Of a stretch of 64,000 bases of DNA, positions 30,881 to 48,286 are shown in pieces. The stretch is from positions 4,032,001-4,096,000 of the forward strand of contig CAWIAD010000002.1 in NCBI GenBank assembly GCA_963833985.1. The letters run 5' to 3'. This DNA is from an uncultured Planctomycetaceae bacterium (GTDB taxonomy: Bacteria; Planctomycetota; Planctomycetia; Isosphaerales; Isosphaeraceae). Both the position numbers and the translations under genes were made by a program. The notes under the pieces are model-generated. The model made no database searches. It saw only the letters and a program-made list of their open reading frames with translations, and was not told the DNA's origin. The first letter of the stretch is position 1. Each line of letters starts with the position of its first letter.

Positions 30881-33800
30881 TCATTCCTGGTGCGCGAACG
30901 GTACCGGCGGGAAGGACAGGTCCATGATGAGGGCCCGGAAGCCGTCGCTGCCGCGGAGCGGCTCCAGGGCGGCCTCCATGCGGATTGCGCCGGTGTTGCG
31001 GTAACCCAGGTTGACCGCCTTGTGAAGCAAGCTCATGGCCAGAGCGGCGTGTTCGTCTGCCTCGGAGGCCGACAGGCCGGAAGCGGGCTGGGTGGCCAGG
31101 CCCGCGAGCGCCGCGTGGCAACAGGCGGTCTCGAACCACTCCTCGCCGGCCCGTGCCTTGATCCCGTCGTACAGGGTCAACGCGTGCTGCGTGTCCGCCG
31201 CAGCGCCGGCGCGGTTGCCCAGGTCGCGCAAGGCCAGTCCGCGTCTCCGTAACGAGTGGGCCAGCAGGCCCCGGTACCACGGGTTTGAGCTCTCTTGCAC
31301 CAGCTTCTCCTGAATGGCGATCGCACGGTCGTAATCTGCGCGTGCCTCGGCGGGCCGGCCGAGCACTCGCACCACGTCGCCCAGGTCGTACAGCGCACCC
31401 GCCAGGCCGACTCGATGAGCGGGGATCCCGGGGTTCTCCTTGATGAGGTTTTCATACAGGGCGAGGGTTCGACGTTGCACCGATTCCGCCGCGGCCGGGC
31501 GTCCGGTCTCGAAGAGTAAGATGCCAAGGTCCATGAGGTTGTTCGCGAGCTCGGCGCGGAAACCGGTGACACTGGGATCGCGGTCGACAAGCCCCTGGTA
31601 GATGGCCATCGACCGGCGATACTCCGCTTCCGCCTCCAGTGCCTTGCCCGATTCTGCGAGCATGTACCCGAGGTTATGACGGCTGCGGGCCAGGTCGCTC
31701 TGAAGCTTGCTGACGGCGGGGTTCTCTTCGGCGAGCTTCTGCCGGAGCACCAGCGCACGCAGGAATTCCACCTGCGCCTCGGCGGTTCGGCCCGTCTGGT
31801 AGAGCACCATCGCCAGCGCCGAGTGGCCGTCGGCAAGGTTGCCGCGGAACTCCGACAGGGTCGGATTATCCTCCGCCAGCTTCTGGTAGATTGCGATCGA
31901 CTTCTGGAATTCCGACTGCGATTCCGCGGCCCGGCCCATCTGGCTGAGCACCTCGCCCAGGTTCCTTTGGCTGAGCGCCACGTCGTTCCGCAGGTCGGTG
32001 ACCGCCGGGTTGTCGTCGGCGATCTGCTGCTTGATCTGCATGGCGGTGCGGAATGCGGCCTCGGCCTCGGGAAGCCGACCCGCCACGTTCAAGAGCAGGC
32101 CGCCGAGGTTGTTGTAGACCATCCCCAGCCGGCGCCGGTACTCGGTGTTCGTGGGGTTTTCCTGGACCAGCTTCTCGTAGATCGCAAGCGCCTTGCGGTA
32201 CTCTGCGCCGGCCTCAGCGGGCCGGCCTGTACGAGCCAGCACGTTACCGATCCGGTTGATTGTGTTGGCCAGTTCCCGACGCGCCTCGGGCGTTGCGCCG
32301 GCAGCGTCGGCGAGGATTTCCTGGTCGGCACGAGCCTGGCGCAGGACCTCCAGACCGTCAGCCGCGTGGCCCGTGCTGTAGAGTAGATAGCCCAGCCGAG
32401 ACCGGCAGTCGGCCAGTGCCGCCCGGACCTGCCTGGAGGCTGTGCCCGAGGCAGACGCCGACAGCGGCTGAGCCGCCAGCAAGAGCTCGGCTTTGCGGTA
32501 GGTCGCCAGCGCCTCGCCGGTCGTGTGGATGCCCTCCAGCAGGCTTGCGATGGCTGTCAGGCTGCGGCCGATCTCGGCTCTTGCCTGAGGATCCGCCGTC
32601 GGTTCGGCGACCAGCGCTCGCGCGCCGCCAGCACCGACCGATGTGCCGCCAGGGCTTCTTCCTTGCGGCCCACCTTGTCCGTCAGATCAGCCAGCTCGAA
32701 GTTGGATGCCGCCAGCGCCCTGCGCGAGGCGAGGTCAGTCTCCTGACCAAGCAAGGCCGAGAGCTTGCCGTAAAAGTCCGCGGCCGACCTGAGCAGCCGG
32801 TCGCGCAGCTCCCGGAACTGGTTCTGTTTCAGCAGGAAATCCTCGCTCACGCCCGTGTGAAACGTCTTGATGGCGTCGACGGCCAGATCGTAGCGCTCTT
32901 GCACCTTTGTGTTGGCGGCGATGAGGTCGGAATTGGCCGTCGCCAGTGCCGTGTTCGCCCTGGCCAGTGCGGTGTTCGCTCGCTCGGCGCGGATCAGCCC
33001 CCAGGTGGTGCCGGCGATGCCCAGGATGAGCGAGAGCAACAGCAGCGCGGCCGCGGCCACCTGTCCGCGATGACGGACGGCGAACTTGCGCAGCCGGTAA
33101 CCGGCGCTGGGCGGCCGGGCCTCGACAACCTCGTTGCTCAGGTATCGCTGGATGTCGCGTGCCAGGCCGTTGGCCGTCTCGTAGCGCCGGTCGCGCGCCT
33201 TCTCCAGGCACTTCATCACCACCCAGTCCAGCTCGCCGCGCAGAATCGCGGTGAGACGGCGCGGCTCCATCTGACGCACGGCCGCCAGCGACGGCAGCGC
33301 CGCATCCGTGGAAAGCCGGGTGGACGGCTTTGACGGCTCCTCCTCGCGGATGATCCGGATCATCTCCGTGAGAGCGGCCTTCCTGAGCCGGCTGGCGTCG
33401 ATCGGCCGCAAACCAGTCAGCAGCTCGTAGAGCACCACGCCCAGCGAGTAGATGTCGGAGCGCGTGTCGATATCCTCGCCCGATAACCCGGCCTGTTCGG
33501 GCGACATGTATTCGAGCGTTCCCACCACGGCGCCGAACTGGGTGGCCAGCGATTCATCGGTCAGCTTGCCGGCGGCCGCGGTGGCCTTGGCCACGCCGAA
33601 ATCAATCACCTTGGGTACGGGCCTGCCGTCCACCAGGGTGACCAGGATGTTCGCCGGCTTCAGGTCGCGATGGACGATGCCCTTCTGGTGCGCATGCTGC
33701 ACCGCCTGGCAGATGGGGACGAAGAGCTCCAGCCGCTCCCGTGGCGTCAGTTTCAACTCGTCGCAGAATCTCGTCAGGGGCAAGCCGTTCACCAGCTCCA

Positions 33801-34467
33801 TCACGAAGTACGGCTGGCCGCTGGCCGTCATGCCGCCGTCGAGCACCCGGGCGATGTTCGGGTGGTCCATGAGCGCCAGCGCCTGGCGCTCCTGCTCGAA
33901 GCGCTGGAGCACCGCGCGTGAATCCATTCCAGGCTTGATCAGCTTCAGCGCCACCTGGCGCTTCACGGGCTCGGTCTGACGCGCGACCCAGACCTCTCCC
34001 ATCCCGCCCTCACCCAGCTTCTCCACGAGCGTGTACCGCCCCGCGATCGCAGCGCCGGCGTCGAGCCGGAAGCGCGCCCCGGCAGGGTCCACCATCGAAA
34101 AGGAACCAGCACCGGTCTGCGGACGGAGCTCCCCGGTGGCTGACGTTGCGTCGAGGTCCCGAGGGCCGGACGTCAGCGAGATTCTCCGTGTTCCGTGATC
34201 TCGCGCAGCAGCATCGGACGAGGCGGTGAACTCGCGGGTCAGCTCCGTACCGGCTCCGTCCGTCGCGGGCGAGGTGGAATCGGCGGACGCCTGGGGATGG
34301 GTCGGAGGGCTGAGCAGCGTCGCCCCGGCGGTCTCGTGTGCAGCCAGGAGAGTTTCGACAGCGCGGAGCAGTTCCGGCTTGCCGGCGCACGCCTGCTGGA
34401 GAAAATCGGCACGCTCTTGCGGGCTTGACTTGGCCAGGGCCTGATCAAGGAGCGTCTCTTCGTTCAT
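30881..34467 (-). CDS. Hanks-type Ser/Thr protein kinase with TM segment and C-terminal TPRs; frameshift near 32613
   Basis: LGEGGMGEV, VALKLIK, HRDLKPAN, IDFG, GTLEYMSPE and DIYSLG. A TM segment follows, then TPRs in ORF 30881..32482, joined by ERLVAEPTADPQARAEIGRSL after a 1-nt shift. Confidence 0.92.
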
Positions 34468-34759
34468 CGTCGTCTCCAGCACGCCAGAGTGGGTGGGCAG
34501 CGAGATGTCCAGTGCTTCGTGTGAAGGGGTCAAACTGCCTCTTAGCATCCACACAATTCTTACGAGATGCAATTGCTTTGTTGGAGATTCCGCGTCGGGA
34601 CAGCCGCGCGATCGTCCACGGTCACTCATGACGACCAGGCCTGATCCCGCGGGCCGGGTGTGCAGGCGGTCAGATCGCCCACCGCTCTCGCGATCTTCAT
34701 CGGAACTGCGATAGAATACCTCCTTGTCGATCAGCCGTATTCATTCAATGAGGTCTGCC

Positions 34760-37684: not shown

Positions 37685-38469
37685 TCACGGCCTGACGGCC
37701 GCGCGGCCGAAGTCTTCATGCGGCAGCGATCCGCGCGTGCTCGCCGTGGTATCGAGGGCTTCCAGCAGCGCGTCCACGTCGGCGAAGGGGCGATCTCCGG
37801 CATGGACCCAGCGGACCGTGCCTTCGCGGTCGACGATGAACGTTCCATGCAGGGCTTCTCCGTCGTCCCTGGTGCCGCCGGGAAATGGCTTCCAGACCCC
37901 GTAGGAGAGGGCGACGGCATGGTCGGAATCACTCAGGAGCGGGATCTGGAAACTGCCGAACCGCCGCATACGATCGCGCGAAAAGTTCGGGCTGTCGGCA
38001 CTGACGGCCCAGACCACCGCGCCCGCGCGCGGATTCGAGGCATCGCCTGCTCCAGTTCCACCAGATGGGTCACGCATGCCATGCAAGTGGAACCGAGGTA
38101 AAAGACCAGCACCACCGGCCCGTTCGCGGCCACGGCGCCCAGGTCGTGCGGCTTCCCCCACGCGTCCTCCAGCACGAGCGGCGGGGCCGGCCGGCCAAGG
38201 AGCGGATGGGCCTGGGTAGGGATCCGGTGTCCAGTTTCGTCCTCAGACTCATTGAAGGTCGAGACGGACCGAATTCGCTCGTCCATGATCTGCCGCATGA
38301 GGTCCACCTGGACGACGCCCCGGGTGTGACCGGTGTCATCGACCTTCGACCGCTGGAATACTCCTGGTACCGGCCGCGCAGGCCGCTGGCCGTGGAGCGT
38401 CCACCACGCCCAGGCCGCCGAGACGGTGATGACCGCAATCAAGCCCGATGCGCGCGTGAGTCTCTTCAT
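37685..38469 (-). CDS. Membrane-anchored AhpC/TSA (redoxin) family protein; frameshift near 38030
   Basis: N-terminal TM, GRPAPPLVL..GPVVLVFYLGSTCMAC, then in a second frame VWAVSAD..IPLLSDSDHAVALSYG..HGTFIVDREGTVRW. Confidence 0.8.
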
Positions 38470-38491
38470 GGGAAGCACGGCCAGCCTCCGC

Positions 38492-38866
38492 TCAATCGAA
38501 GAACGGTTTCGACTCGCGCAGCAGATACGCCTCTTTCTCGGCCTCGCCCCAATCTCCGGCCTGGGCTTTCTGGATGATCTCCTGGAGATCCTTGTGGCTC
38601 GCATCGGAGAGCTCGCCCGCGTCGTGACGCTCCTCGATGCGCCTCATGTCCCTGTCCAGCTCGTTCTTGTTCCGCAGCGTGATGGCCGTCAGCAGCGCCT
38701 CGAGCTCGCGGCGGTTCTTGTACTCCCGTTCCGAAGGCTCGCCACAGCCGGCCAGCGTGAGTCCGACCGCGATCGCCAGAAGCCAGACCGTTCGCAGCCC
38801 CCGAACGCGTCCCCGGCGCTGATCCGGATCGCTGGACCGAGGCAGTCCCTCAATAGGCGTCAGCAC
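38492..38866 (-). CDS. Small putative lipoprotein
   Basis: Hydrophobic stretch ending in lipobox LAGC; lies between the DUF1559 gene and the redoxin gene; start uncertain. Confidence 0.7.
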   Translation of the reverse strand: MLTPIEGLPRSSDPDQRRGRVRGLRTVWLLAIAVGLTLAGCGEPSEREYKNRRELEALLTAITLRNKNELDRDMRRIEERHDAGELSDASHKDLQEIIQKAQAGDWGEAEKEAYLLRESKPFFD

Positions 38867-40057: not shown

Positions 40058-41787
40058 CTACCGAGCCTTCTTGATCCGGAGGTTCCGGTATTCGACCACG
40101 TTGAGCTCGGACTGGAGCGCGAGCGGACCTTTGTCCGGGATGGTGAGGGTGGCTTCGAGCAGCTCGCCGTTACAGGTGCATCGCGCCTTTGTGCCGGTGA
40201 CGACCACCTCGATCGCATTCCAGTCGCCATCATTGTAGGACCTGAGGGTCTTGTAAGGGCCGACCCGCGGGTAGTCACGGATCTGAAGCTGGTGTGCGAA
40301 CGCCTTATCGCGCAGGTGCAGCCCGCTATTGGCGTTCCTGGAGGCGCGGAATTCCAGGCGGAGGGTGAAGTCGCCGTCATAAGACTCCACCGTGTCGATC
40401 TCGGCCATCTTGAGGGGCGTGTCCTTCGAGCCGTTGATCACGAGCATGCCGTCCCGGACCGCGAAACGGCGGTCCTCGGATGCCGTCTTCCCGGCCAGCT
40501 CGGTGCTGCCCTGCCGCCAGCCGGTCAGGTCCTTCCCGTTGAAGAGGGGCAGGAAACCCGGCTCAGCGGCGGGCGCGGCGGTGAGAGGAGCCGTGGCGAA
40601 GGGTCGCGCGGGTGCAGCTCCGGAGGGCGAGCCTGCGGAGGGTGCTGCGCCTGGTGCTGCAGCTGGCGGGCCCGGTCGCGATCCGGCGCCGCGGCCCTGC
40701 CCGATGGGACGGGGCGGGTTGGCGACGTGGGCGGCCACTTCCCTGGCGGCTCTGGTCTCCACGCCCGGTTTCTGGAGGAATCCGAGATCCCGAGCCCAGT
40801 CGATGAAGCGATACTGCCAGGTGCCGAAGGGTATGCCGTTGCGGTCGGTCAATCCGCCGGACATGCGGCTCCCATCCGGCAACGGGTCACCCGGGTGCCG
40901 TCCGTTCCCGTAAAGGTGCATCTCCACGTTCGGCACGCCGGCGGCCAGCATTGCCTGGTAGTAATCGAGGGTCCAGAAGGCGTGGACGCGGTCGCCGGCA
41001 CTGGCGCAGACGAGGAATGCGGGCGGGACGTCCTTCGGAACCACCGGCGCCGTGCGGTTGCGGGCGAAGGGCGTTGGGCCGGGGTAGATGAGGCCGACGA
41101 AGTCCGGCGCGAGGAAGTGCCGGCAAACGGGTCCGACGTGCCGTTGTTCGTCCTGTCCCAGTCGTCGTAGAGCAAGGCGGCCGGCGCAGCCAGCTCTGCG
41201 CCCGCGGAGAAGCCCATGACGCCGATCTTCCTGGGGTCGATGCCCCATTGCCTGGTGTAGGCGCGGACGACCCGGACGGCCTGCTGAGCGTCGTGGACGG
41301 CATCAACCTCGGCCACATAGCCGTCCGCGCGCAGCCGGTTCCGCAGGATGACCGTGTTGATGCCGTAATTGTAGAAGAAGGGGACGAAGTCGGCGGCCTC
41401 GCCACCCACGTTCAGCGTCCGGTGGCCACCTCCGGCGATGGCGATCACCGCGGTGCCCGTGTTGATGGACTTCTCCACGAGGTGGACTTCGATCGAGGGA
41501 TTGTGGATGGAGACGATGCTGGAGATCCGGCCGGGGACCGCCTGGCTCATGTGGTAAATCTCGGGCACGTGCAGCCTGTCAGCCTTCAGGTAGGGTGAAT
41601 CGGGCGGGAAGAGTGTGACCACGATGCCGCCGGGCAGGATGGCCTGGGGCGCGTACGGCCGGCCGGTGTCGGCCGCCGTCTTTGGCACGGACTGGGGTGC
41701 CGGCAGCGCGGGCAGCAAAGCCTTCTCCTGCGCCACCGCAGATGCGCCGAGGAAGGCGCAAACGGAGAACAGTGCTGTTCGTCTCAT
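40058..41787 (-). CDS. Secreted alpha/beta-hydrolase (xylan esterase-like) fused to a DUF1080 (3-keto-disaccharide hydrolase-like) domain; frameshift near 41115
   Basis: Signal peptide from 41787, AGGGH and GFSAG nucleophile motif. The second frame has PDFVGLIYPG, EMHLYGNGRH, a Pro/Ala linker, LFNGKDLTGW, NSGLHLR and GPLALQSE..YRNLRIK. Confidence 0.8.
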
Positions 41788-41910
41788 CGGTTCTTGAACC
41801 TCTGTGTTTGTCGCAGTCGCCACACCACTGCCGCAGTTGCCGCGCAATGAGCACAGGGGTCATCTTACCGGGTCCTGGCTCGACCAGGGACACCCGGATG
41901 GCAACCAGAT

Positions 41911-44900
41911 TCAAGGCCGCTCGGCGACCAGACGGAAGCGGCCCTCGCCGTAGAGGAGGTAGTTGGCCCAGTCGGGGAGCTTCTGCTCCCGCAGCCTGGC
42001 GCGGGCGAGCGTCACGGCGTTTTCCAGCGTTTTGCCGACGGAGAGCTGTGTGTAGACCTCGGCGGAGAAGACCTGGGCGGCCTCGTCGTTCACGGTCCAG
42101 AAGGTTCCCAGGTAAGCCTCCGCGCCGGCACGCAGGAAGAACTCGGCGAACGAGGCGGCCTCGCTGGTCACCTCGCCGCGCACCCGGCCCGCCTGGCAGG
42201 CATTGACGAAGGCCACCCGCGGAAGTTCCAGGCCGTGCAGGTCGGCCAGGGTGAGCCGCTCGCCGCCGGCCAGCACCAGGCCGCTGCCGCTCTCGCCGGG
42301 ACCGGCGAAGTAGGCGTGTCCGCAGTAGTGCAGCAAGTCCGCTCCGGGCAGGGCCTCCCGCAGCGCAAGCTTGGTCGCCTCGCCTCCGCGCAGCACACGA
42401 AGCTTGACCCGTACCTGGAGTTGCCGGAGCAAGGCCTCGACGGCCCGGCCCTCCTCGTCGGCGCCGGGGAGGTTCTCCGTCGGGTCGATCACCAGCAGCA
42501 CGTGGAACTCCTGGGCCCGAGGCGGTCGTGCGAAGAGCCGGTCCACGGGTACTCCCGGCACGGCGAGCCTGCGGCTCAGGCCGGCGCCTGTGGCCGGCGC
42601 GCCAGAGCCCGGCGCAACGATCGTCTCGAACGGCAGGCGCGAAGACGCGACGTCGTGCACGATGACGACCCGGGCGCCGGCCGTGCGGGCGAGCATCTGC
42701 TCGGCCTGGTCGCCCAGGATCAACCGGGCCAGCGCCTGGCCGCGCGCTTGCAGGGAAGGTAGGTCCGGCGTACTCCGCTGGCCGGGACCGCAGCCCGCGG
42801 CCAGCCCGCAGAGCTCGGCTTCGCTCAGCGCCTGCCGCCGGAAGTCGACCACGGTACTGCCGGCCGGCGGGAGCACGGTCACCACAAGCTGGGCGTCTTC
42901 ATGGCTGACGTGCACGACGAGAGGCTCGTCGCGCGGGGGCTCGGCCAGCTCGGAGACCTCCTCGATCCGGGTGGTCAGCTTGACGCCCGGGTCGGCGGCG
43001 AGCAGATCGCGGAGGGCCTCGAAGCGCTGCACGTCGTGCTCGAACCAGGTGACGCTGGCGTGGCCGGCGAGCGCGCCCAGTGCGCTCAGCATCTCGCGCG
43101 CGGCCGGTCTGGCGTCCTCGGTGACGTTCCCGCCATAGGTCACCACGCCAACCCGCCGCAAGCCGTACTGCCGCGCCATGGCGGCCGTCTGGCGGGCCGC
43201 ATCGGCGACCTGTTTTTCGATGGCCCCGGCCTCCCTGACCGATCCCAGGGATGCCAGGTAGACCCAGTCGGCGTCGATACCCGAGCGGCTGGCGCTGACC
43301 AACCGTGAGCCGGAGCGGCGGACGGCGGACGCACGGCCGCCCGTGGCGCGATCGATCACGGCCGCGGCCCCTCCGAGTGGCACATCGTCAAAGCTGGCGA
43401 CGGCGATCGCGTCCAGCTCGTGCGCGCCAGCCACGCTGCCGTGAACCAGCTCCACAAGCAGCTTGCCGGAGGCGGCTCTGCTGTTCAGGTTCAGCAACCC
43501 GCGGAGGATGAGTGACGTGATGCGCACGGTGTCACGCGAGCGCAGGAGCTCTCGGTTCTGCGCCGCGGTCAGGCCGTTCCAGGCCATGGAAGCCTGGTCG
43601 GAGAGCAGGAGCGGGAGGCCGGCGGCCTTGATTGCCTGCGCCAGGCCTTCCAGAGAGACCGGGAGTCCGAGCTTGTCCCGGTACGGGTCGTGGTCCACGG
43701 TCTCGGCCAGGGTGCGAACGCGTTCCACGCCCACCCACGTGGCGTCCTTCATCCGGTCGGGAATCTCGCGGTCTTCCAGCAGGTCGGCCACGAGGGCCGC
43801 GGCCCCGCCGAAGCCGCCCACGACGTACAGCGGCTGGCCGATCTCGAGCGACCGCCAGGCCTCCTCGACCACACCCGGAAAGCGCCCCGTGTAGCCCTCG
43901 CCCGGCGGCTCGCGGCGCGGCTCGGCTGCGCCGCCGATGAGCACGCGCGCGGCGGTCGTCCGCGCCATCACGCGCCGCATGTCCGAAAGGTAAAGCGACG
44001 GGTGATGCGCGGCCTGCTCGCTGGCCGGCAGAATCGCCAGTGCGGCCACGTCGTCGAGTGACGCCAGGTGGTGCAAGGTCATCGGCACGCTCGACGGAAT
44101 CTCGTCGATGCGGCTGGACGCTGTGAGGTAGCTGTGAAGGAACTCCGCGGGGTGTGCGGCCGTCTGGTTGTAAGCCCGGATCAACTCGGCGAGCAGAAGT
44201 GTGTAGCCTTGCCCGGCGGCATTGTTCGTCACCATCGGGCGATAGTCGCCACCGTACGCGATGGCCGCCCCGGCCGAGATGAGCGTCCTGGCGATATGCA
44301 CGGTCAAGTCGACGAAGTGATGCCTGGTCCACCCTTCGGGCCCGTTCAGATCGGGACTGTCCGAGAGCGACATGGCCACCTGGAGCCCTTGCAAGGGTGC
44401 GAATCCCGGGCTGCCCGTGTCGCGGCTCAGCACATGACGGTAGGCCGTTGTGGGCGTGACGAGATGAAGGCGCGGATTGGCCGCCATCAACACCTGGCGT
44501 TCCTGGGTGGAAAGCTCCGGGTCCGGGTGCATCACAAGCTGGGGCGAAGCACTGCGCAAGGGGCCCTGGGCCATATCGAGCAGCTCGGGCGGGCGAATGA
44601 GGATGTCGGCTTCGGGCAGCCCGGCCGCCTCGCAGACGCGCACGGCCTCGCGCAGGAAGTGCACGGACCTCAGCCACTCGATCATGGCCTGGAGCACGAC
44701 CTGCCCCGCGGGGTCGTGCCCCTGGTTCCAGACCACGGTGGGGCTGTTCCCGCCGTAGGGGAGGCTCCTGCGCTCGCCCTTCTGGAGCAGCTCGACCGTG
44801 AGCGTGGGCAAGCCGTGCTTCTTGGCTGCGAGCAGCTCGCGCTGGCACCAGATCCGCGAGCTGTAAGAATCGCCCCGCACGGCGACGAACACGCCCCGGC

Positions 44901-45543
44901 TGGCCGCGAAGTCAATCTGTTCCTGAAGCGATTCGCCGGAGAGCAGCTCGGTCGTGTCGAAAAACGCGTTCGCCGTGGCGTTCGTCTTCGCGTAGTGGGC
45001 GATCTTCTCGGCGGCCTGCTGGGTGGGAACCAGGTCGGACTTGGCATGCGAGACGAACAGCGTGGTTTCCCTGCGGTCCCGGGACAGCAGCCGTGAGACC
45101 GCAAGCACGATCTCCAGCAGGGTCGACGCCCGGCGCGGCTGCGTCCCGTACAGCTCGGTGAGAACCAGCTTTCCGGGGAGCTCGGCCTCGGCGTTCCGCC
45201 AGACCTCGTCCACCGGTACGGGAAGCACGTGGCCAGGTCCGAGAAGCTCGTGCCAGCGGCGGATGCGCCGGATCGTCGCGTCCCGGTTCAGGGCGAAGGA
45301 GAACCTTCCCAGCACCGGGATCACCGCGACGGTTTCCGCGCAGTCCAGGTTCACGTGATCTGGATCAACCGCGCTGAGGATCGGGATTGATGCACCGAAG
45401 GCGAGCGGGTCCTGCACGGGACGCGTGAGGTTGTCGTAGAGGTCGAGCCCCAGGGAGGAGGCGGCGGCGCGTTCGCCCGGGTGGAAAGCGACGGTGAGAA
45501 CAACCAGGACGGGCCGCGCCGGAGCGTCGTTCGCTGTGGTCAT
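41911..45543 (-). CDS. Multidomain putative immune protein: degenerate TIR-like + TIR + SLOG + macro-like + CHAT (caspase-like protease)
   Basis: TIR: LFVSHAKSD..FFD..YSSRIWCQRELL. SLOG: VAMSLSDS..AYGGD..LSDMRR..ARVLIGG..PGVVEEA..PLYVVGGFGGAA. Macro-like: VELVHGSV..DAIAV..GGAAAVIDRA. CHAT: DPTENLPGADEE, LLHYCGH, FVNACQ, YLGTFWTV, WANYLLYG. One uninterrupted frame of about 1210 aa. Confidence 0.85.
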   Translation of the reverse strand: MTTANDAPARPVLVVLTVAFHPGERAAASSLGLDLYDNLTRPVQDPLAFGASIPILSAVDPDHVNLDCAETVAVIPVLGRFSFALNRDATIRRIRRWHELLGPGHVLPVPVDEVWRNAEAELPGKLVLTELYGTQPRRASTLLEIVLAVSRLLSRDRRETTLFVSHAKSDLVPTQQAAEKIAHYAKTNATANAFFDTTELLSGESLQEQIDFAASRGVFVAVRGDSYSSRIWCQRELLAAKKHGLPTLTVELLQKGERRSLPYGGNSPTVVWNQGHDPAGQVVLQAMIEWLRSVHFLREAVRVCEAAGLPEADILIRPPELLDMAQGPLRSASPQLVMHPDPELSTQERQVLMAANPRLHLVTPTTAYRHVLSRDTGSPGFAPLQGLQVAMSLSDSPDLNGPEGWTRHHFVDLTVHIARTLISAGAAIAYGGDYRPMVTNNAAGQGYTLLLAELIRAYNQTAAHPAEFLHSYLTASSRIDEIPSSVPMTLHHLASLDDVAALAILPASEQAAHHPSLYLSDMRRVMARTTAARVLIGGAAEPRREPPGEGYTGRFPGVVEEAWRSLEIGQPLYVVGGFGGAAALVADLLEDREIPDRMKDATWVGVERVRTLAETVDHDPYRDKLGLPVSLEGLAQAIKAAGLPLLLSDQASMAWNGLTAAQNRELLRSRDTVRITSLILRGLLNLNSRAASGKLLVELVHGSVAGAHELDAIAVASFDDVPLGGAAAVIDRATGGRASAVRRSGSRLVSASRSGIDADWVYLASLGSVREAGAIEKQVADAARQTAAMARQYGLRRVGVVTYGGNVTEDARPAAREMLSALGALAGHASVTWFEHDVQRFEALRDLLAADPGVKLTTRIEEVSELAEPPRDEPLVVHVSHEDAQLVVTVLPPAGSTVVDFRRQALSEAELCGLAAGCGPGQRSTPDLPSLQARGQALARLILGDQAEQMLARTAGARVVIVHDVASSRLPFETIVAPGSGAPATGAGLSRRLAVPGVPVDRLFARPPRAQEFHVLLVIDPTENLPGADEEGRAVEALLRQLQVRVKLRVLRGGEATKLALREALPGADLLHYCGHAYFAGPGESGSGLVLAGGERLTLADLHGLELPRVAFVNACQAGRVRGEVTSEAASFAEFFLRAGAEAYLGTFWTVNDEAAQVFSAEVYTQLSVGKTLENAVTLARARLREQKLPDWANYLLYGEGRFRLVAERP

Positions 45544-46148
45544 TCCCACCCCCCGCGCCGGTATTCGGCGTCGCTGACGGAACGCGGCAGGCGCCGGCCT
45601 ACCGGTCTGGGCGCGTCCTGTCGCAACCATCCGGGGCCGGAGATGCCGAGATGGCTCCGCACCCCGGCACGCGTCCGGAAACCTCATAGAACGGTATAGT
45701 CGGACAGCCGATCGTGTCCAAGGAAAAACGCGCACGGTTTTCCGGTGCACGGTCTCTTTTCGGAGCCGCAACATGACGAGACGTGGTAGTCTGGCAGCGC
45801 CGGCACCAGGTGTGGAAGGTTGCGCTCCGGCCGTCGATCTCCTGTCGAGTTCGATCTGCCAGCGCGGCGCGGCCGAGGCACCAGCCGGGAATTTCGGACT
45901 GTGGACCTGTTTGTTGATTGCAGTTGTGTCTCTTCATCCGCGACCGTCCCGCGGCCCGCGCGATTGACGACCACCGGTCGGGGCCCCAGAATGATCATGC
46001 GCTGATCGCGTCTACCGGGGAATCGGGAGGATGCGTTCTGGAAAGCAAGTCCGCGACGACTCTGATCTCTGGGCGACTCCTCCGGTGAGTCTCTCCTTTG
46101 CTCCAGGTTCGAGCCACTCTCAATCTCATGAGAAAGATGGAGGTCCGA

Positions 46149-47131
46149 ATGATCGTGCGGCGCATCCTGGTTATCCTCGGCGCGGCCGTCCTCACCCTGA
46201 CCATGGTCCGGGTGACGACGGCGCAGAACGGCGACCAGAAGGCATCGGGTCTGGGGTTGTGTGCGAAGTGCGCCTTGCACATGACGCCGCAATGTCAGAA
46301 TGCCCTGGTGATCGACGCCGGCGGCCGGCGCCAGGTTTACCTGTTGAAAGACAACCAGGTCAGCAAGGCGTTTCACAAGGACGTGTGCAAGACCAGCGTG
46401 CCGATCGTGGTCGTGGGCCGGGTGGTCCGGGCTTCCGGGCCGCGAGCCGACGGCGTGGTGGTCCTCGGCGAGATCGAGCCTTCGAGCCTGGCCCTGGATG
46501 ATTGCGAAATCAACCCGGTGGTCACGCTGGGCGGCGTGGGCCAGTGCGCCAAGTGCAGCCTGAAGCAGTCCACGACGTGCGTCAACGTGATGACCTGCCA
46601 CCTGGACGCAAAGGACGTGACCTTCTGGCTGGCGGACAACGAGGTATCCAAGGCGTTCCACAAGACCATTTGCAAGTCCAGAGAGGTGATCCTCGCCACC
46701 GGCAAGCAGGAAGGGAAGGACGCTGCCGGCCACGAGATATTCACCCCGATCAAGCTTGAACGGGTCGTCTCCGAGCCAGCAAGCGTTCAGCCTTCAGCGG
46801 TCGAGCACGCAACGAAGCCGGTGGAAGCTCCTGTCGCGGCCGAAACACCGCTCCAGAAGTTGCAGTACGTGATGGGAAATGTCTGGTGCGAGCCTGCTTC
46901 AAGCACCGCGGACGTGATTGTCAGATCGTCGTGCAGTTTAGCGATGAAGGGAAGTGGCTGTATTACTGGCTGACCGATACGGACGCCAAGACGAAGATTC
47001 ACGCGGAGCTTTACGACGGCCAGACGCCGAGCAAGGCAGCATTCATGAAGGTGTCCGGAATCATCGTGCAGCCTGCCACCGAGCAGGCCGGCGGTCTGCT
47101 TTCCGCCTCGAAGTTCGAAGTCATCCACTGA
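46149..47131 (+). CDS. Secreted Cys-rich protein with three CxxC...C repeats (DUF6370-like); frameshift near 46890
   Basis: GGAGG RBS and signal peptide. Repeats are CAKCALHMTPQC..VSKAFHKDVC and CAKCSLKQSTTC..VSKAFHKTIC. Restoring one G at TGCGAG^CCTGC gives a third, CEACFKHRGRDC..YYWL..KIH. Confidence 0.7.
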
Positions 47132-47192
47132 ACGATTCCGGGAGCGGTGGTTTCTGTTCTGTTCTTCCTTGTGTCCGAGGTCGAGCACGCTC

Positions 47193-48263
47193 ATGCGCAT
47201 CTTCATCAGCTACCGACGCGAGATCAGCCGCGATATCGCAGACAGGATCGATGAGCGGCTGGTCAGGAAGTACGGGCGCCAGTCCGTCTTCAAGGACGTG
47301 CATTCGATTCGCCCCGGGCAGGATTTCCGGAGCATCATCAACGGGGCCGTGTGTCGTTGCGACGTCCTGCTTGCGGTCATCGGACCGCGGTGGGTGACCG
47401 TCACGGACGACCACGGCAAGCGGCGGCTTGATTCCGAGAACGACTTCGTGCGACTGGAGATCAAGACGGCCCTGAAGGCGGGCATTCCGATCATCCCCCT
47501 GCGCGTCGACGAAGCGCCCGTGCCACGTGAGGAGGAGCTCCCCGCGACCCTCCAGTCTCTGGTCTATCGCAACGCGCTGCCCATTCGCCCCGACCCGGAT
47601 TTCGAGCGCGACATCAGCGATCTGCTGGGAACGCTCAAGAGCCTGGAGTCCGGCTCTCGAAATGTGGTGAAGCTGGTTGCGGCGTCTCTGGCGGTGCTTG
47701 CCTTGCTTGCGGCAGTGGCCCTCGCGGCCGTCTTCCACCCCTGGCAAGTCAGCGGAACGAAGGATCAATCCTCAGGGCTCCTCATCAAGACGACGGGCCG
47801 CGGTGACTCCGGGGGAGGAGCGGCTCCGGAGCTTCCCACCAGGGACCCCCAGCCACCCGTCCAGACGGCGGGGGAGAACGGTTCCACGGGTAAAACCGCG
47901 GCCATCCTGCTGGCGTCGGCAGCCGAGCTGCGGAAAGTGGAGGAGTCGATCGAGTGCAACGACCTGGGCGAGGCGCGCCACCTTTTGAAGGACCTGAAGT
48001 CGCGGTGCGCGGGCGACCCCCTGCCCACCTACTACGATGCCGTGGCTGTTCTCAAGCTCCAGGGCTGGACAGGAGAGCCGGAAAACCTGATCCAGGAAGG
48101 CCGGAAGCTGGAGCAGCAGGGCGGGGCATGCGGCGATCGGAGCAGGCTCGATCCGCTCCTCGAGAGCCTGCTGGCTTACCTCACTCCGGAAGACCAGTTG
48201 AAGCTCCAGGGCTTGCTCGGCAGGACGATCAAGTCATCCGCAACGCTCCCGGGCGCACCATGA
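47193..48263 (+). CDS. TIR-domain protein with one TM helix and a C-terminal helical (TPR-like) domain
   Basis: MRIFISYRR..VFKDVHSIRPGQDF..LLAVIGPRW..DFVRLEI (catalytic-position Glu present), TM LVAASLAVLALLAAVALAAVF. Confidence 0.88.
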   Translation: MRIFISYRREISRDIADRIDERLVRKYGRQSVFKDVHSIRPGQDFRSIINGAVCRCDVLLAVIGPRWVTVTDDHGKRRLDSENDFVRLEIKTALKAGIPIIPLRVDEAPVPREEELPATLQSLVYRNALPIRPDPDFERDISDLLGTLKSLESGSRNVVKLVAASLAVLALLAAVALAAVFHPWQVSGTKDQSSGLLIKTTGRGDSGGGAAPELPTRDPQPPVQTAGENGSTGKTAAILLASAAELRKVEESIECNDLGEARHLLKDLKSRCAGDPLPTYYDAVAVLKLQGWTGEPENLIQEGRKLEQQGGACGDRSRLDPLLESLLAYLTPEDQLKLQGLLGRTIKSSATLPGAP

Positions 48264-48286
48264 ATTGCCCTGCGTTTGCGAGACAT

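Follow-up and report, generated by a model that had tools for sequence, protein, structure and literature searches.

The described systems nearest to the locus reported here are the Thoeris systems and the SAVED-CHAT/PCaspase cascade of type III-B CRISPR. Type III Thoeris consists of multiple TIR proteins and a SLOG-containing effector, the mechanism of which is given as uncharacterised (10.64898/2025.12.03.692087). In type I Thoeris, SLOG gating of ThsA provides a precedent, with S290, R371, G399 and E403 as its 3'cADPR-pocket residues (10.1101/2022.05.07.491051). The ThsA of type II Thoeris is a TM-macro protein, and the macro Asp binds adenine N6 (PMC11204291). Type IV Thoeris combines a TIR protein with the caspase-like ThsE and uses N7-cADPR (10.1101/2024.10.24.620036). 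Activation of a caspase-like protease by a TIR signal has precedent, as has a proteolytic cascade in SAVED-CHAT/PCaspase. With type III Thoeris signalling described as uncharacterised, and with stand-alone TIR proteins filtered out of a large TIR survey, the family considered here may have been passed over.

Here we describe a gene at 41911..45543, on the minus strand of the window (the whole 64-kb stretch of DNA analysed), which encodes an N-terminal domain, a TIR, a small domain X, a SLOG domain, a macro fold, a pre-CHAT domain and a CHAT protease, as delimited by ORF, Pfam and full-length homologues. No PADLOC (PADLOC-DB 2023 version) or NCBIfam system model covers the full protein length; the protein itself draws partial TIR- or CHAT-level PADLOC matches of ~19 bits, TIR or CHAT parts of relatives score no higher than 31 bits, and literature searches found no paper with the fused TIR-SLOG-macro-CHAT architecture. 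The fused protein is a Thoeris-like variant absent from PADLOC and NCBIfam system models, in agreement with the original prediction, in which the arrangement matched no described system familiar to its author. Tentatively, we favour its being the effector in a Thoeris-like anti-phage system that has yet to be catalogued, gated by SLOG and fed by separate TIRs.

Domain architecture of the fused protein

The gene forms one open frame (45543-41911) of 1210 aa, and an ORF check of the window found no internal stops, as first predicted; the domain coordinates proposed at the same time were correct to about 30 nt. An alternative in-frame ATG at 45774 would give a 1287-aa product. Alignments with homologues open between residues 1 and 11 of the product that begins at 45543, which makes this the likely start and the longer form unlikely. 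Pfam positions are given here as renumbered to the 1210-aa protein. Among the 120 proteins listed, 113 (query counted) align over >1150 aa, and the 112 full-length homologues among the matches listed (identity 40-64%) exclude a mis-assembly, which had been raised for the SLOG-CHAT junction. The whole 1210 aa is accounted for by non-SIR2 domains, with no SIR2 in Pfam, NCBIfam and PADLOC scans, and no TM segment was found in the protein.

The N-terminal domain (aa 8-155; 45079..45522, minus strand like all domains of the gene) has a flavodoxin-like alpha/beta fold in an AlphaFold2 model of aa 8-375 (pTM 0.91), where N-domain, TIR and X are packed as one unit. Its sole listed fold match is a receiver domain (Z 8.5), the list being filled by the central TIR. 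Comparison with the TIR on a deep alignment gave a weak in-register profile match (pairwise E 0.005-0.009, probability <10%), on a shallow alignment the result was negative, and an ESM Atlas lead pointed to TIR_2 (0.90). The domain is likely a catalytically dead TIR. The earlier proposal of a degenerate TIR-like N-terminus is borne out only in part.

The second domain (aa 158-295; 44659..45072) is a TIR. Pfam TIR_2 matches aa 163-242 at 25.3 bits, below the 28-bit cut-off, and the fold is matched at Z 12.4 by the SARM1 TIR (rmsd 2.6, 123 aligned) and at Z 10.1 by ThsB. The predicted WCQRE motif with its catalytic-position Glu is present (E236, codon 44836-44838), and Glu is found in 112/113 homologues among the matches listed. 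Between TIR and SLOG there always sits domain X (aa 300-372; 44428..44646), a small conserved alpha/beta domain of ~75 aa delimited by conservation and secondary structure. It carries the motifs RPPELLD and HPDP, also occurs in split and parent forms, and had been overlooked in the original prediction.

The SLOG domain, likewise anticipated, belongs to cluster 2 (aa 384-690; 43474..44394); Pfam LD_cluster2/SLOG (PF18163) matches aa 384-666 with E 1e-38. By motif mapping, S394, R523, G557 and E561 are counterparts of ThsA S290, R371, G399 and E403, and they are conserved in 111-113 of 113 homologues among the matches listed (98-100%). These pocket residues are kept even where the TIR is dead, and SLOG is the most constrained domain even there. 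The conserved Arg/Glu pair is, we presume, equally compatible with a LOG-type hydrolase and a sensor.

The domain that follows (aa 692-862; 42958..43470) takes a macro fold, as proposed. It is modelled by AlphaFold2 with pLDDT 93.7 and pTM 0.89, and the macro topology spans the whole domain in model and fold comparison. Structural matches include a designed protein with a sequence nearly that of TTHA0132 (Z 18.3, rmsd 2.2, 150 aligned), PARP9 macro-2 with ADPR (Z 17.8), the PepA N-domain (Z 14.9) and the type II ThsA macro (Z 9.3). Pfam M17_N matches 24/44 macro-domain sequences and Pfam Macro matches 1; identity as a leucyl aminopeptidase was rejected, the likeness being limited to the N-domain of that enzyme. 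Both pyrophosphate glycine loops are retained (G725 in 111/113, G805 in 102/113 and G804 in 87/113 among the matches listed). The adenine-binding Asp position, set by profile alignment to TTHA0132, is Ser703 here and Asp in 19/113 homologues among the matches listed. With Asp so infrequent, and with the macro domain also present in fusions that contain no TIR, the suggestion that it is a second ADPR sensor is not well supported. It may instead serve regulation or oligomerisation within the CHAT cassette, perhaps weakly binding an ADPR-like ligand.

A pre-CHAT domain (aa 870-1005; 42529..42936), defined by HMM matches in both fusion classes and lying partly within the Pfam CHAT match, travels together with macro and CHAT and probably forms the half of the CHAT module that lacks catalysis. 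The caspase-like protease core occupies aa 1010-1206 (41926..42516), Pfam CHAT matching aa 933-1199 with E 3e-32. Its best PDB profile match is 8TL0, a CHAT-domain protein; a single-sequence PDB search gave no match at E up to 1. The expected dyad is in place and near-invariant among the matches listed, with His1076 of HYCGH (42316-42318) in 113/113 homologues and Cys1116 of NAC (42196-42198) in 112/113.

A TIR-SLOG parent fused once to a mobile macro-CHAT cassette

The first 690 aa correspond to a widespread effector-less TIR-SLOG protein that occurs on its own. Such N-TIR-X-SLOG parents (~680 aa, no effector domain beyond the TIR) make up 63 of the best 150 representatives. Of 80 metagenome loci (475 kb, 126 TIRs), 63 have separate TIR genes beside the parent, as do 7/7 plasmid loci, one of them on a Priestia megaterium plasmid. 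Many of these TIRs are small ThsB-like proteins, and the plasmid parent module adjoins IS elements and CRISPR genes. Nmad2, MazG_C or UDG genes are present at 41/80 parent loci, and could be true effectors or a pointer to a modified-nucleotide ligand; TIRs are found without these genes at 23 of the 63 TIR-bearing parent loci, and searches of the own genome and of the surroundings of fusion loci found none of the three.

The macro-CHAT cassette is also fused to alpha/beta-hydrolase (lipase) and FHA parts without a TIR, and the TIR-less macro-CHAT genes have TIR neighbours at 0/17 loci (0 in 161 kb). C14 caspase genes lie directly upstream at 5 loci and Lipase_3 genes at 4, both also occurring fused, and further partners include amidases. 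Within the 64-kb window no C14 caspase or class-3 lipase partner was found.

The CHAT fusions form one branch (support 99), showing that the parent was fused to the cassette once. The TIR Glu is kept in 59/60 parents versus 51/69 CHAT-fused representatives (18/69 lost), a comparison biased by a search profile that included dead-TIR fusions and a ranking that favours intact parents. The state of this Glu changes at least 13 times, all inside the branch, and the CHAT dyad is intact in 71/72 representatives. Among the closer 113 homologues listed, the TIR Glu is 99% kept. The idea that the internal TIR is the signal synthase is not well supported, since the Glu was lost repeatedly among these fusions while SLOG and CHAT residues persist.

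The distribution of the fusion is patchy, with presence in 0/13 same-genus genomes and 1 fused copy among 400 phylum genomes, and the block 41900-48280 was found in none of the 13 same-genus genomes compared. This defence-like spread supports the immune role first suggested for the gene. Neither a tRNA, an informative repeat nor a significant promoter or terminator was found at the block edges, and no empty site was found in relatives because the genes flanking the block are not adjacent there. On viral contigs, 116 pattern matches included no relative. No plasmid record spans 80% of the protein, the plasmid matches being only at parent or CHAT level.

Neighbouring TIRs and readings of function

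At the own locus there are two TIR-bearing genes. The second, divergent from the fusion at 47169..48263 (plus strand), encodes a TIR with its Glu kept (Pfam TIR_2, E 1.5e-12), one TM helix and a C-terminal domain. It lies 1.6 kb from the fusion gene, with a gene between them at 46098..46973 (plus strand, within the 41900-48280 block) for a Cys/His-rich protein of DUF6370 type that has two internal repeats, identified by Pfam. The own 10.2-Mb genome has only 6 TIR_2 matches by one count and 5 by another, 2 of these 5 at this locus, and the TIR-TM protein is a candidate for an upstream sensor TIR. Across fusion loci, 26 further TIR genes were found in 387 kb, at 12/38 loci. The occurrence of TIR genes at parent loci, fusion loci and the own locus points to an effector that is fed by other TIRs.

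Under our favoured reading, separate TIR sensors (here probably the TIR-TM gene) would make an NAD-derived signal that would bind the SLOG pocket. Binding would cause rearrangement or oligomerisation and so activate both outputs of the protein, the NADase of its TIR and the protease of its CHAT domain, and these would likely arrest or kill the cell infected by phage. The internal TIR may have been the parent's original output, through NAD depletion or signal amplification, and may have become dispensable in some lineages after the protease was gained. With a C14 caspase or class-3 lipase encoded alongside it or in the same chain, CHAT could act as an initiator cleaving this partner, as SAVED-CHAT does PCaspase.

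The original prediction was of a self-contained one-gene system, in which the N-domain/TIR would sense phage and the internal TIR would make a signal read in cis by SLOG to activate CHAT. We consider this unlikely, although stand-alone use is possible because 12/24 intact-TIR fusion loci with flanking DNA (flank <=8 kb) have no neighbouring TIR. It also gains from the near-universal TIR Glu of the close homologues, from the 136/166 fusion proteins that are core only, and from N-terminal STAND and ParA fusions, which could be built-in triggers. Against it, the parent has only its TIR for SLOG to control and sits among separate TIRs, and the TIR Glu has repeatedly been lost while SLOG and CHAT were kept. 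Against the favoured reading, in turn, a neighbouring TIR was found at 0/7 dead-TIR fusion loci, one of which has no flank, at two dead-TIR loci a DUF4062 or deoxyribosyltransferase-like gene is nearby, and the TIR-TM gene of the own locus is divergent and set apart from the fusion by another gene.

An assembly hub without a diffusible signal seems improbable to us. Here diverse sensor TIRs would recruit the N-domain/TIR through contacts between TIRs, and clustering would activate NADase and CHAT. The brakes would be SLOG and macro, which would bind or hydrolyse ADPR-type products. Neighbour TIRs are indeed fused to WD40, LRR, STAND, COR, FHA or TM parts, a likely dead N-terminal TIR would suit docking, the Arg/Glu pair is retained in SLOG, and TIR NADases require self-association (10.64898/2026.03.01.708072). 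However, the catalytic Glu is retained in 24 of the 26 neighbour TIRs that were aligned, many neighbour TIRs are small and ThsB-like, and SLOG is the most constrained domain even where the TIR is dead.

Of similarly low probability is a two-messenger relay within one chain, in which a cyclic ADPR-type signal made by outside TIR sensors would open SLOG and the internal TIR would next convert NAD to linear ADPR. Macro, on sensing this second messenger, would free CHAT to cleave a caspase or lipase executioner. If true, this would define a new type of Thoeris that carries its own checkpoint; the TIR-SLOG parent, itself uncatalogued, would be a TIR NADase effector under SLOG control and supplied by arrays of TIRs.

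Very unlikely is a nucleotide-gated protease switch unrelated to phage, with a part in development, in remodelling of the envelope or in programmed lysis among PVC bacteria and myxobacteria with large genomes: most hosts belong to the Planctomycetota, Verrucomicrobiota and Myxococcota/deltaproteobacteria, amidases and lipases are among the partners, a weak HetF match occurs in relatives, and no known defence gene or defence island was found near the fusion in the 64-kb window besides the TIR genes, but the very patchy presence, the plasmid-borne parent beside IS elements and CRISPR genes, and the TIR arrays and TIR/SLOG/caspase parts typical of conflict systems speak against it.

The family offers a convenient test bed: its protease could report on a cluster-2 SLOG, dead-TIR variants occur naturally, and parents that lack CHAT are found in hosts amenable to culture. 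Its study would identify the ligand of the cluster-2 SLOG family, show if an NADase effector gated by SLOG can be a TIR, and reveal the route from TIR signal to CHAT protease, extending bacterial parallels to TIR-caspase cell death.

Comparison with known systems

Several TIR genes around a SLOG protein are shared with type III Thoeris; this holds for the parent module and a third of the fusion loci. The stretch matched by the ThcB4 model, aa 29-174, takes in part of the N-domain and the TIR, but the score is 30.3 bits against a cut-off of 220, and ThcA gives no match at E up to 1. The scores of parent and split forms likewise fall far under the ThcB4 and ThcA cut-offs. Here, moreover, SLOG is of cluster 2 and fused, with macro and CHAT added.

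The protein resembles the SIR2-SLOG ThsA of type I Thoeris in that its SLOG bears, at motif level, counterparts to the residues of the 3'cADPR pocket, and in its predicted supply by TIRs encoded separately. It differs in having another SLOG family, no SIR2, and a TIR and a CHAT protease as its predicted outputs. As in type IV Thoeris, TIR signalling would be coupled to a caspase-superfamily His/Cys protease. ThsE, however, is separate, lacks SLOG and macro, and is thought to sense via its own C-terminal domain, whereas here a CHAT-family protease (PF12770) stands behind SLOG and macro in a TIR-containing chain. A macro fold in a TIR context recalls type II Thoeris ThsA (PMC11204291), but here the macro is internal and soluble without a TM helix, its Z to that ThsA is 9.3 compared with 17-18 to classical macros, and the N6-binding Asp is mostly absent.

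With SAVED-CHAT/PCaspase the family shares the fusion of a nucleotide-sensor domain to CHAT, and C14 caspase partners adjacent to or fused with relatives. Unlike in that system, SLOG/macro takes the place of SAVED, TIR rather than Cas10 is the proposed signal source, and there is neither a CRISPR link nor a caspase partner in the window. Lastly, the fusion of macro-CHAT to alpha/beta-hydrolases elsewhere and the recurring lipase partners resemble the caspase and alpha/beta-hydrolase pairings of Kaur et al. 2020 (PMC7159879); the MoxR-vWA core is missing here, and the accessible parts of that paper mention no macro-CHAT or TIR-SLOG-CHAT.

Two separable modules in one conserved protein

The gene at window 45543-41911 (-) is a single open frame of 1210 aa, as originally predicted. 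In its product (the fusion), Pfam recognises SLOG cluster 2 (E 1e-38) and CHAT (E 3e-32), with TIR_2 scoring under the cut-off. Of 8000 candidates scored for homology, 138 matched; among the 120 listed, 113 proteins (query counted) align over >1150 aa at 40-64% identity, so the SLOG-CHAT junction is real and a mis-assembly is ruled out. The predicted catalytic residues hold up in these close homologues, with TIR E236 conserved in 112/113, CHAT H1076 in 113/113 and CHAT C1116 in 112/113. Hosts of the relatives (57 loci) are mainly Planctomycetota, Verrucomicrobiota and Myxococcota/deltaproteobacteria, which, with a DUF1559 gene in the window, points to a planctomycete.

The predicted structure of aa 8-375 (pLDDT 92.4, pTM 0.91) comprises three packed alpha/beta domains. 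The middle domain is a TIR by fold (SARM1 TIR Z 12.4, ThsB Z 10.1), and the third, X (aa 300-372), is small, conserved and was missing from the original list. The description of the N-terminus as degenerate and TIR-like stands in part: the N-domain is flavodoxin-like and matches TIR profiles weakly but in register, without Glu at the catalytic position; a receiver domain (Z 8.5) is its sole entry in a fold-match list taken up by the central TIR. Given the in-register match and an ESM Atlas lead to TIR_2 at 0.90, it likely descends from a TIR. In LOG enzymes, the Arg/Glu pair of the SLOG pocket is catalytic. The fusion's S394, R523, G557 and E561, conserved in 111-113 of 113, appear by motif to match ThsA residues S290, R371, G399 and E403, which belong to its 3'cADPR pocket (10.1101/2022.05.07.491051).

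The predicted macro fold is borne out for aa 692-862 (model pLDDT 93.7): structural comparison scores Z 17-18 against classical macro domains, 14.9 against the PepA N-domain and 9.3 against type II ThsA. Pfam calls Peptidase_M17_N in 24/44 such domains and Macro in 1/44. Both glycine loops are retained, but the adenine-binding Asp position holds Ser in 75/113 and Asp in only 19/113, which argues against the proposed second ADPR sensor, as does the domain's occurrence without TIR. Macro, pre-CHAT and CHAT also follow an alpha/beta-hydrolase or FHA domain in proteins that lack TIR, and among 284 proteins compared (166 with X+SLOG+macro+CHAT) none has SLOG and CHAT without macro; the macro is therefore part of the CHAT cassette, and its ligand need not be a TIR product. 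TIR genes were found at 0/17 loci (161 kb) around TIR-less macro-CHAT genes. Those of these proteins that were checked (L034-L053; alpha/beta-hydrolase forms about 1050 aa) have intact GHSxG and His/Cys motifs; a sirtuin gene lies upstream at L053.

N-TIR-X-SLOG also stands alone without CHAT, as a ~680-aa protein (the parent), or in two pieces (about 390 + 285 aa). Searching with a profile of the module retrieved 1204 representatives (E cut-off 1e-30); the top 150 comprise 72 CHAT fusions, 63 ending at SLOG, 9 with other tails and 6 cut off after macro. In a FastTree X+SLOG tree of 141 rows (the 150 minus 9 named rows and one without usable X+SLOG, plus the query), CHAT fusions form one branch (support 99) with two short-tailed rows inside. 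One intact fusion is followed, 1.5 kb downstream, by a split TIR + SLOG cluster-2 pair (L013:13138-15239), placing two related modules in one island.

Gene neighbourhoods of parents and fusions

Separate TIR genes adjoin the parent at 63/80 metagenome loci, 126 in all over 475 kb (best 80 of 504, several near-duplicates), and at 7/7 plasmid loci viewed. Parent loci with arrays of small TIR genes (L071-L150, L064-L070) are widespread. Separate CHAT, macro, lipase or caspase genes were found in none of the 80, and patatin in one. Nmad2, MazG_C or UDG genes occur at 41/80 (e.g. L094:1948-4432, L111:2401-4920, L116:3585-8734), some with HMUDK_hel and thymidylate synthase, hinting at modified nucleotides; TIRs occur without them at 23, and they were not found near CHAT fusions. 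No PADLOC or NCBIfam system model matched the parent module over its full length, and the parent (fused or split) with its arrays of small TIR genes is a candidate for a separate Thoeris type.

Around the fusions, a leave-one-locus-out TIR profile detected 26 TIR genes in 387 kb at 12/38 loci (4 had no flank), and 24/26 aligned carry the catalytic Glu. The fusion's own 10.2-Mb genome has five profile matches, two at the fusion locus; ten host genomes chosen for having TIR neighbours hold 1-16 TIR_2 matches apiece, which often cluster on the contig carrying the fusion. At L008:3747-7366, a fusion copy in three ORFs sits within a dense TIR cluster, and 7/9 TIR_2 matches of that genome share one contig.

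Within 2.6 kb of fusions lie 125 neighbour genes (119 scanned), with C14 caspases upstream at 5 loci and Lipase_3 genes at 4; lipase, C14 caspase, nSTAND1, ParA-TIR and phosphoesterase are also seen fused. Lipase_3, sometimes amidase-lipase, is fused N-terminally to TIR-SLOG-macro-CHAT at L040, L048, L051 and L056 and in P0168, P0181, P0183, P0184, P0186 and P0189, often with a dead TIR (catalytic Glu lost), a lipase-TIR pairing that may loosely recall plant EDS1. Other fusions carry N-terminal nSTAND1, ParA-TIR, DUF7379 or C14 caspase, and 14 have a C-terminal extension, mainly calcineurin-like phosphoesterase (L025:7986-13361; P0093, P0094, P0097 and others).

In this window, a divergent gene for a TIR with one TM helix (47169-48263 (+)) lies 1.6 kb from the fusion, and the 6.4-kb block holding both went undetected in the 13 same-genus genomes searched (65-100% complete). 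The 120 same-family genomes gave one CHAT-level match, and 8/400 phylum genomes hold the module, fused in one. The block includes a DUF6370 protein gene (46098-46973 (+)) with two Cys/His-rich repeats at 285-nt spacing and a possibly frameshifted C-terminus. Near the fusion, AhpC/TSA (37685-38604 (-)) and BD-FAE/3-keto-disaccharide hydrolase (40058-41847 (-)) genes both run over two frames, through frameshifts that stem from either assembly error or decay. A Ser/Thr kinase and then a TPR gene (30881-34629 (-)), 7 kb downstream, are generic and show no link.

Loss of the internal TIR glutamate and candidate mechanisms

The TIR Glu is present in 59/60 aligned parents against 51/69 CHAT fusions (Fisher p 8e-5, overstated through non-independent kin and a profile and ranking that favour this difference). 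On the X+SLOG tree its state changes at least 13 times, always within the fusion branch. The CHAT dyad is intact in 71/72 fusions, and nearly all keep the Arg and Glu of the SLOG; by these alignments, the internal TIR decays while SLOG and CHAT persist.

Our simplest reading, a tentative one, is that the parent would act as a ThsA-like effector whose SIR2 is replaced by a TIR, since it pairs a SLOG of the sensor type with a putatively active TIR as its sole effector domain, and ThsB-like TIRs abound among its neighbours. The SLOG would gate the TIR as output in the manner of ThsA, with the signal probably coming from separate TIRs; one lineage gained the macro-CHAT cassette and with it a predicted protease output, which could render the NADase dispensable. 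Counting against this reading, a TIR neighbour was detected at 0/7 fusion loci with a dead TIR, and at 12/24 intact-TIR loci with flanks there is none. The latter count favours the originally predicted self-contained one-gene system, which we nonetheless consider unlikely. A TIR-TIR assembly hub seems less probable again, and a non-defence role quite improbable.

Relation to known systems

Burroughs and colleagues reportedly defined SLOG cluster 2 in 2015, with TIR, patatin and alpha/beta-hydrolase as its partners, and may already have sketched the parent module. No TIR-SLOG-macro-CHAT protein was found described in the literature searched, which included the available parts of 10.64898/2026.03.01.708072, 10.64898/2026.10.19.760177, PMC7159879, PMC9503650 and PMC11204291. 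As read here, the fusion would share a predicted SLOG gate with type I Thoeris; both it and the parent resemble the TIR arrays and SLOG of type III (10.64898/2025.12.03.692087), and its predicted output resembles the caspase-like one of type IV (10.1101/2024.10.24.620036). It would offer an initiator option similar to that of SAVED-CHAT. By analogy, the fusion would work like a hybrid of types I, III and IV, and by the features tested it belongs to none of them. It is real, conserved and apparently uncatalogued, and is best counted within Thoeris-like TIR signalling, as a variant and not a category apart.
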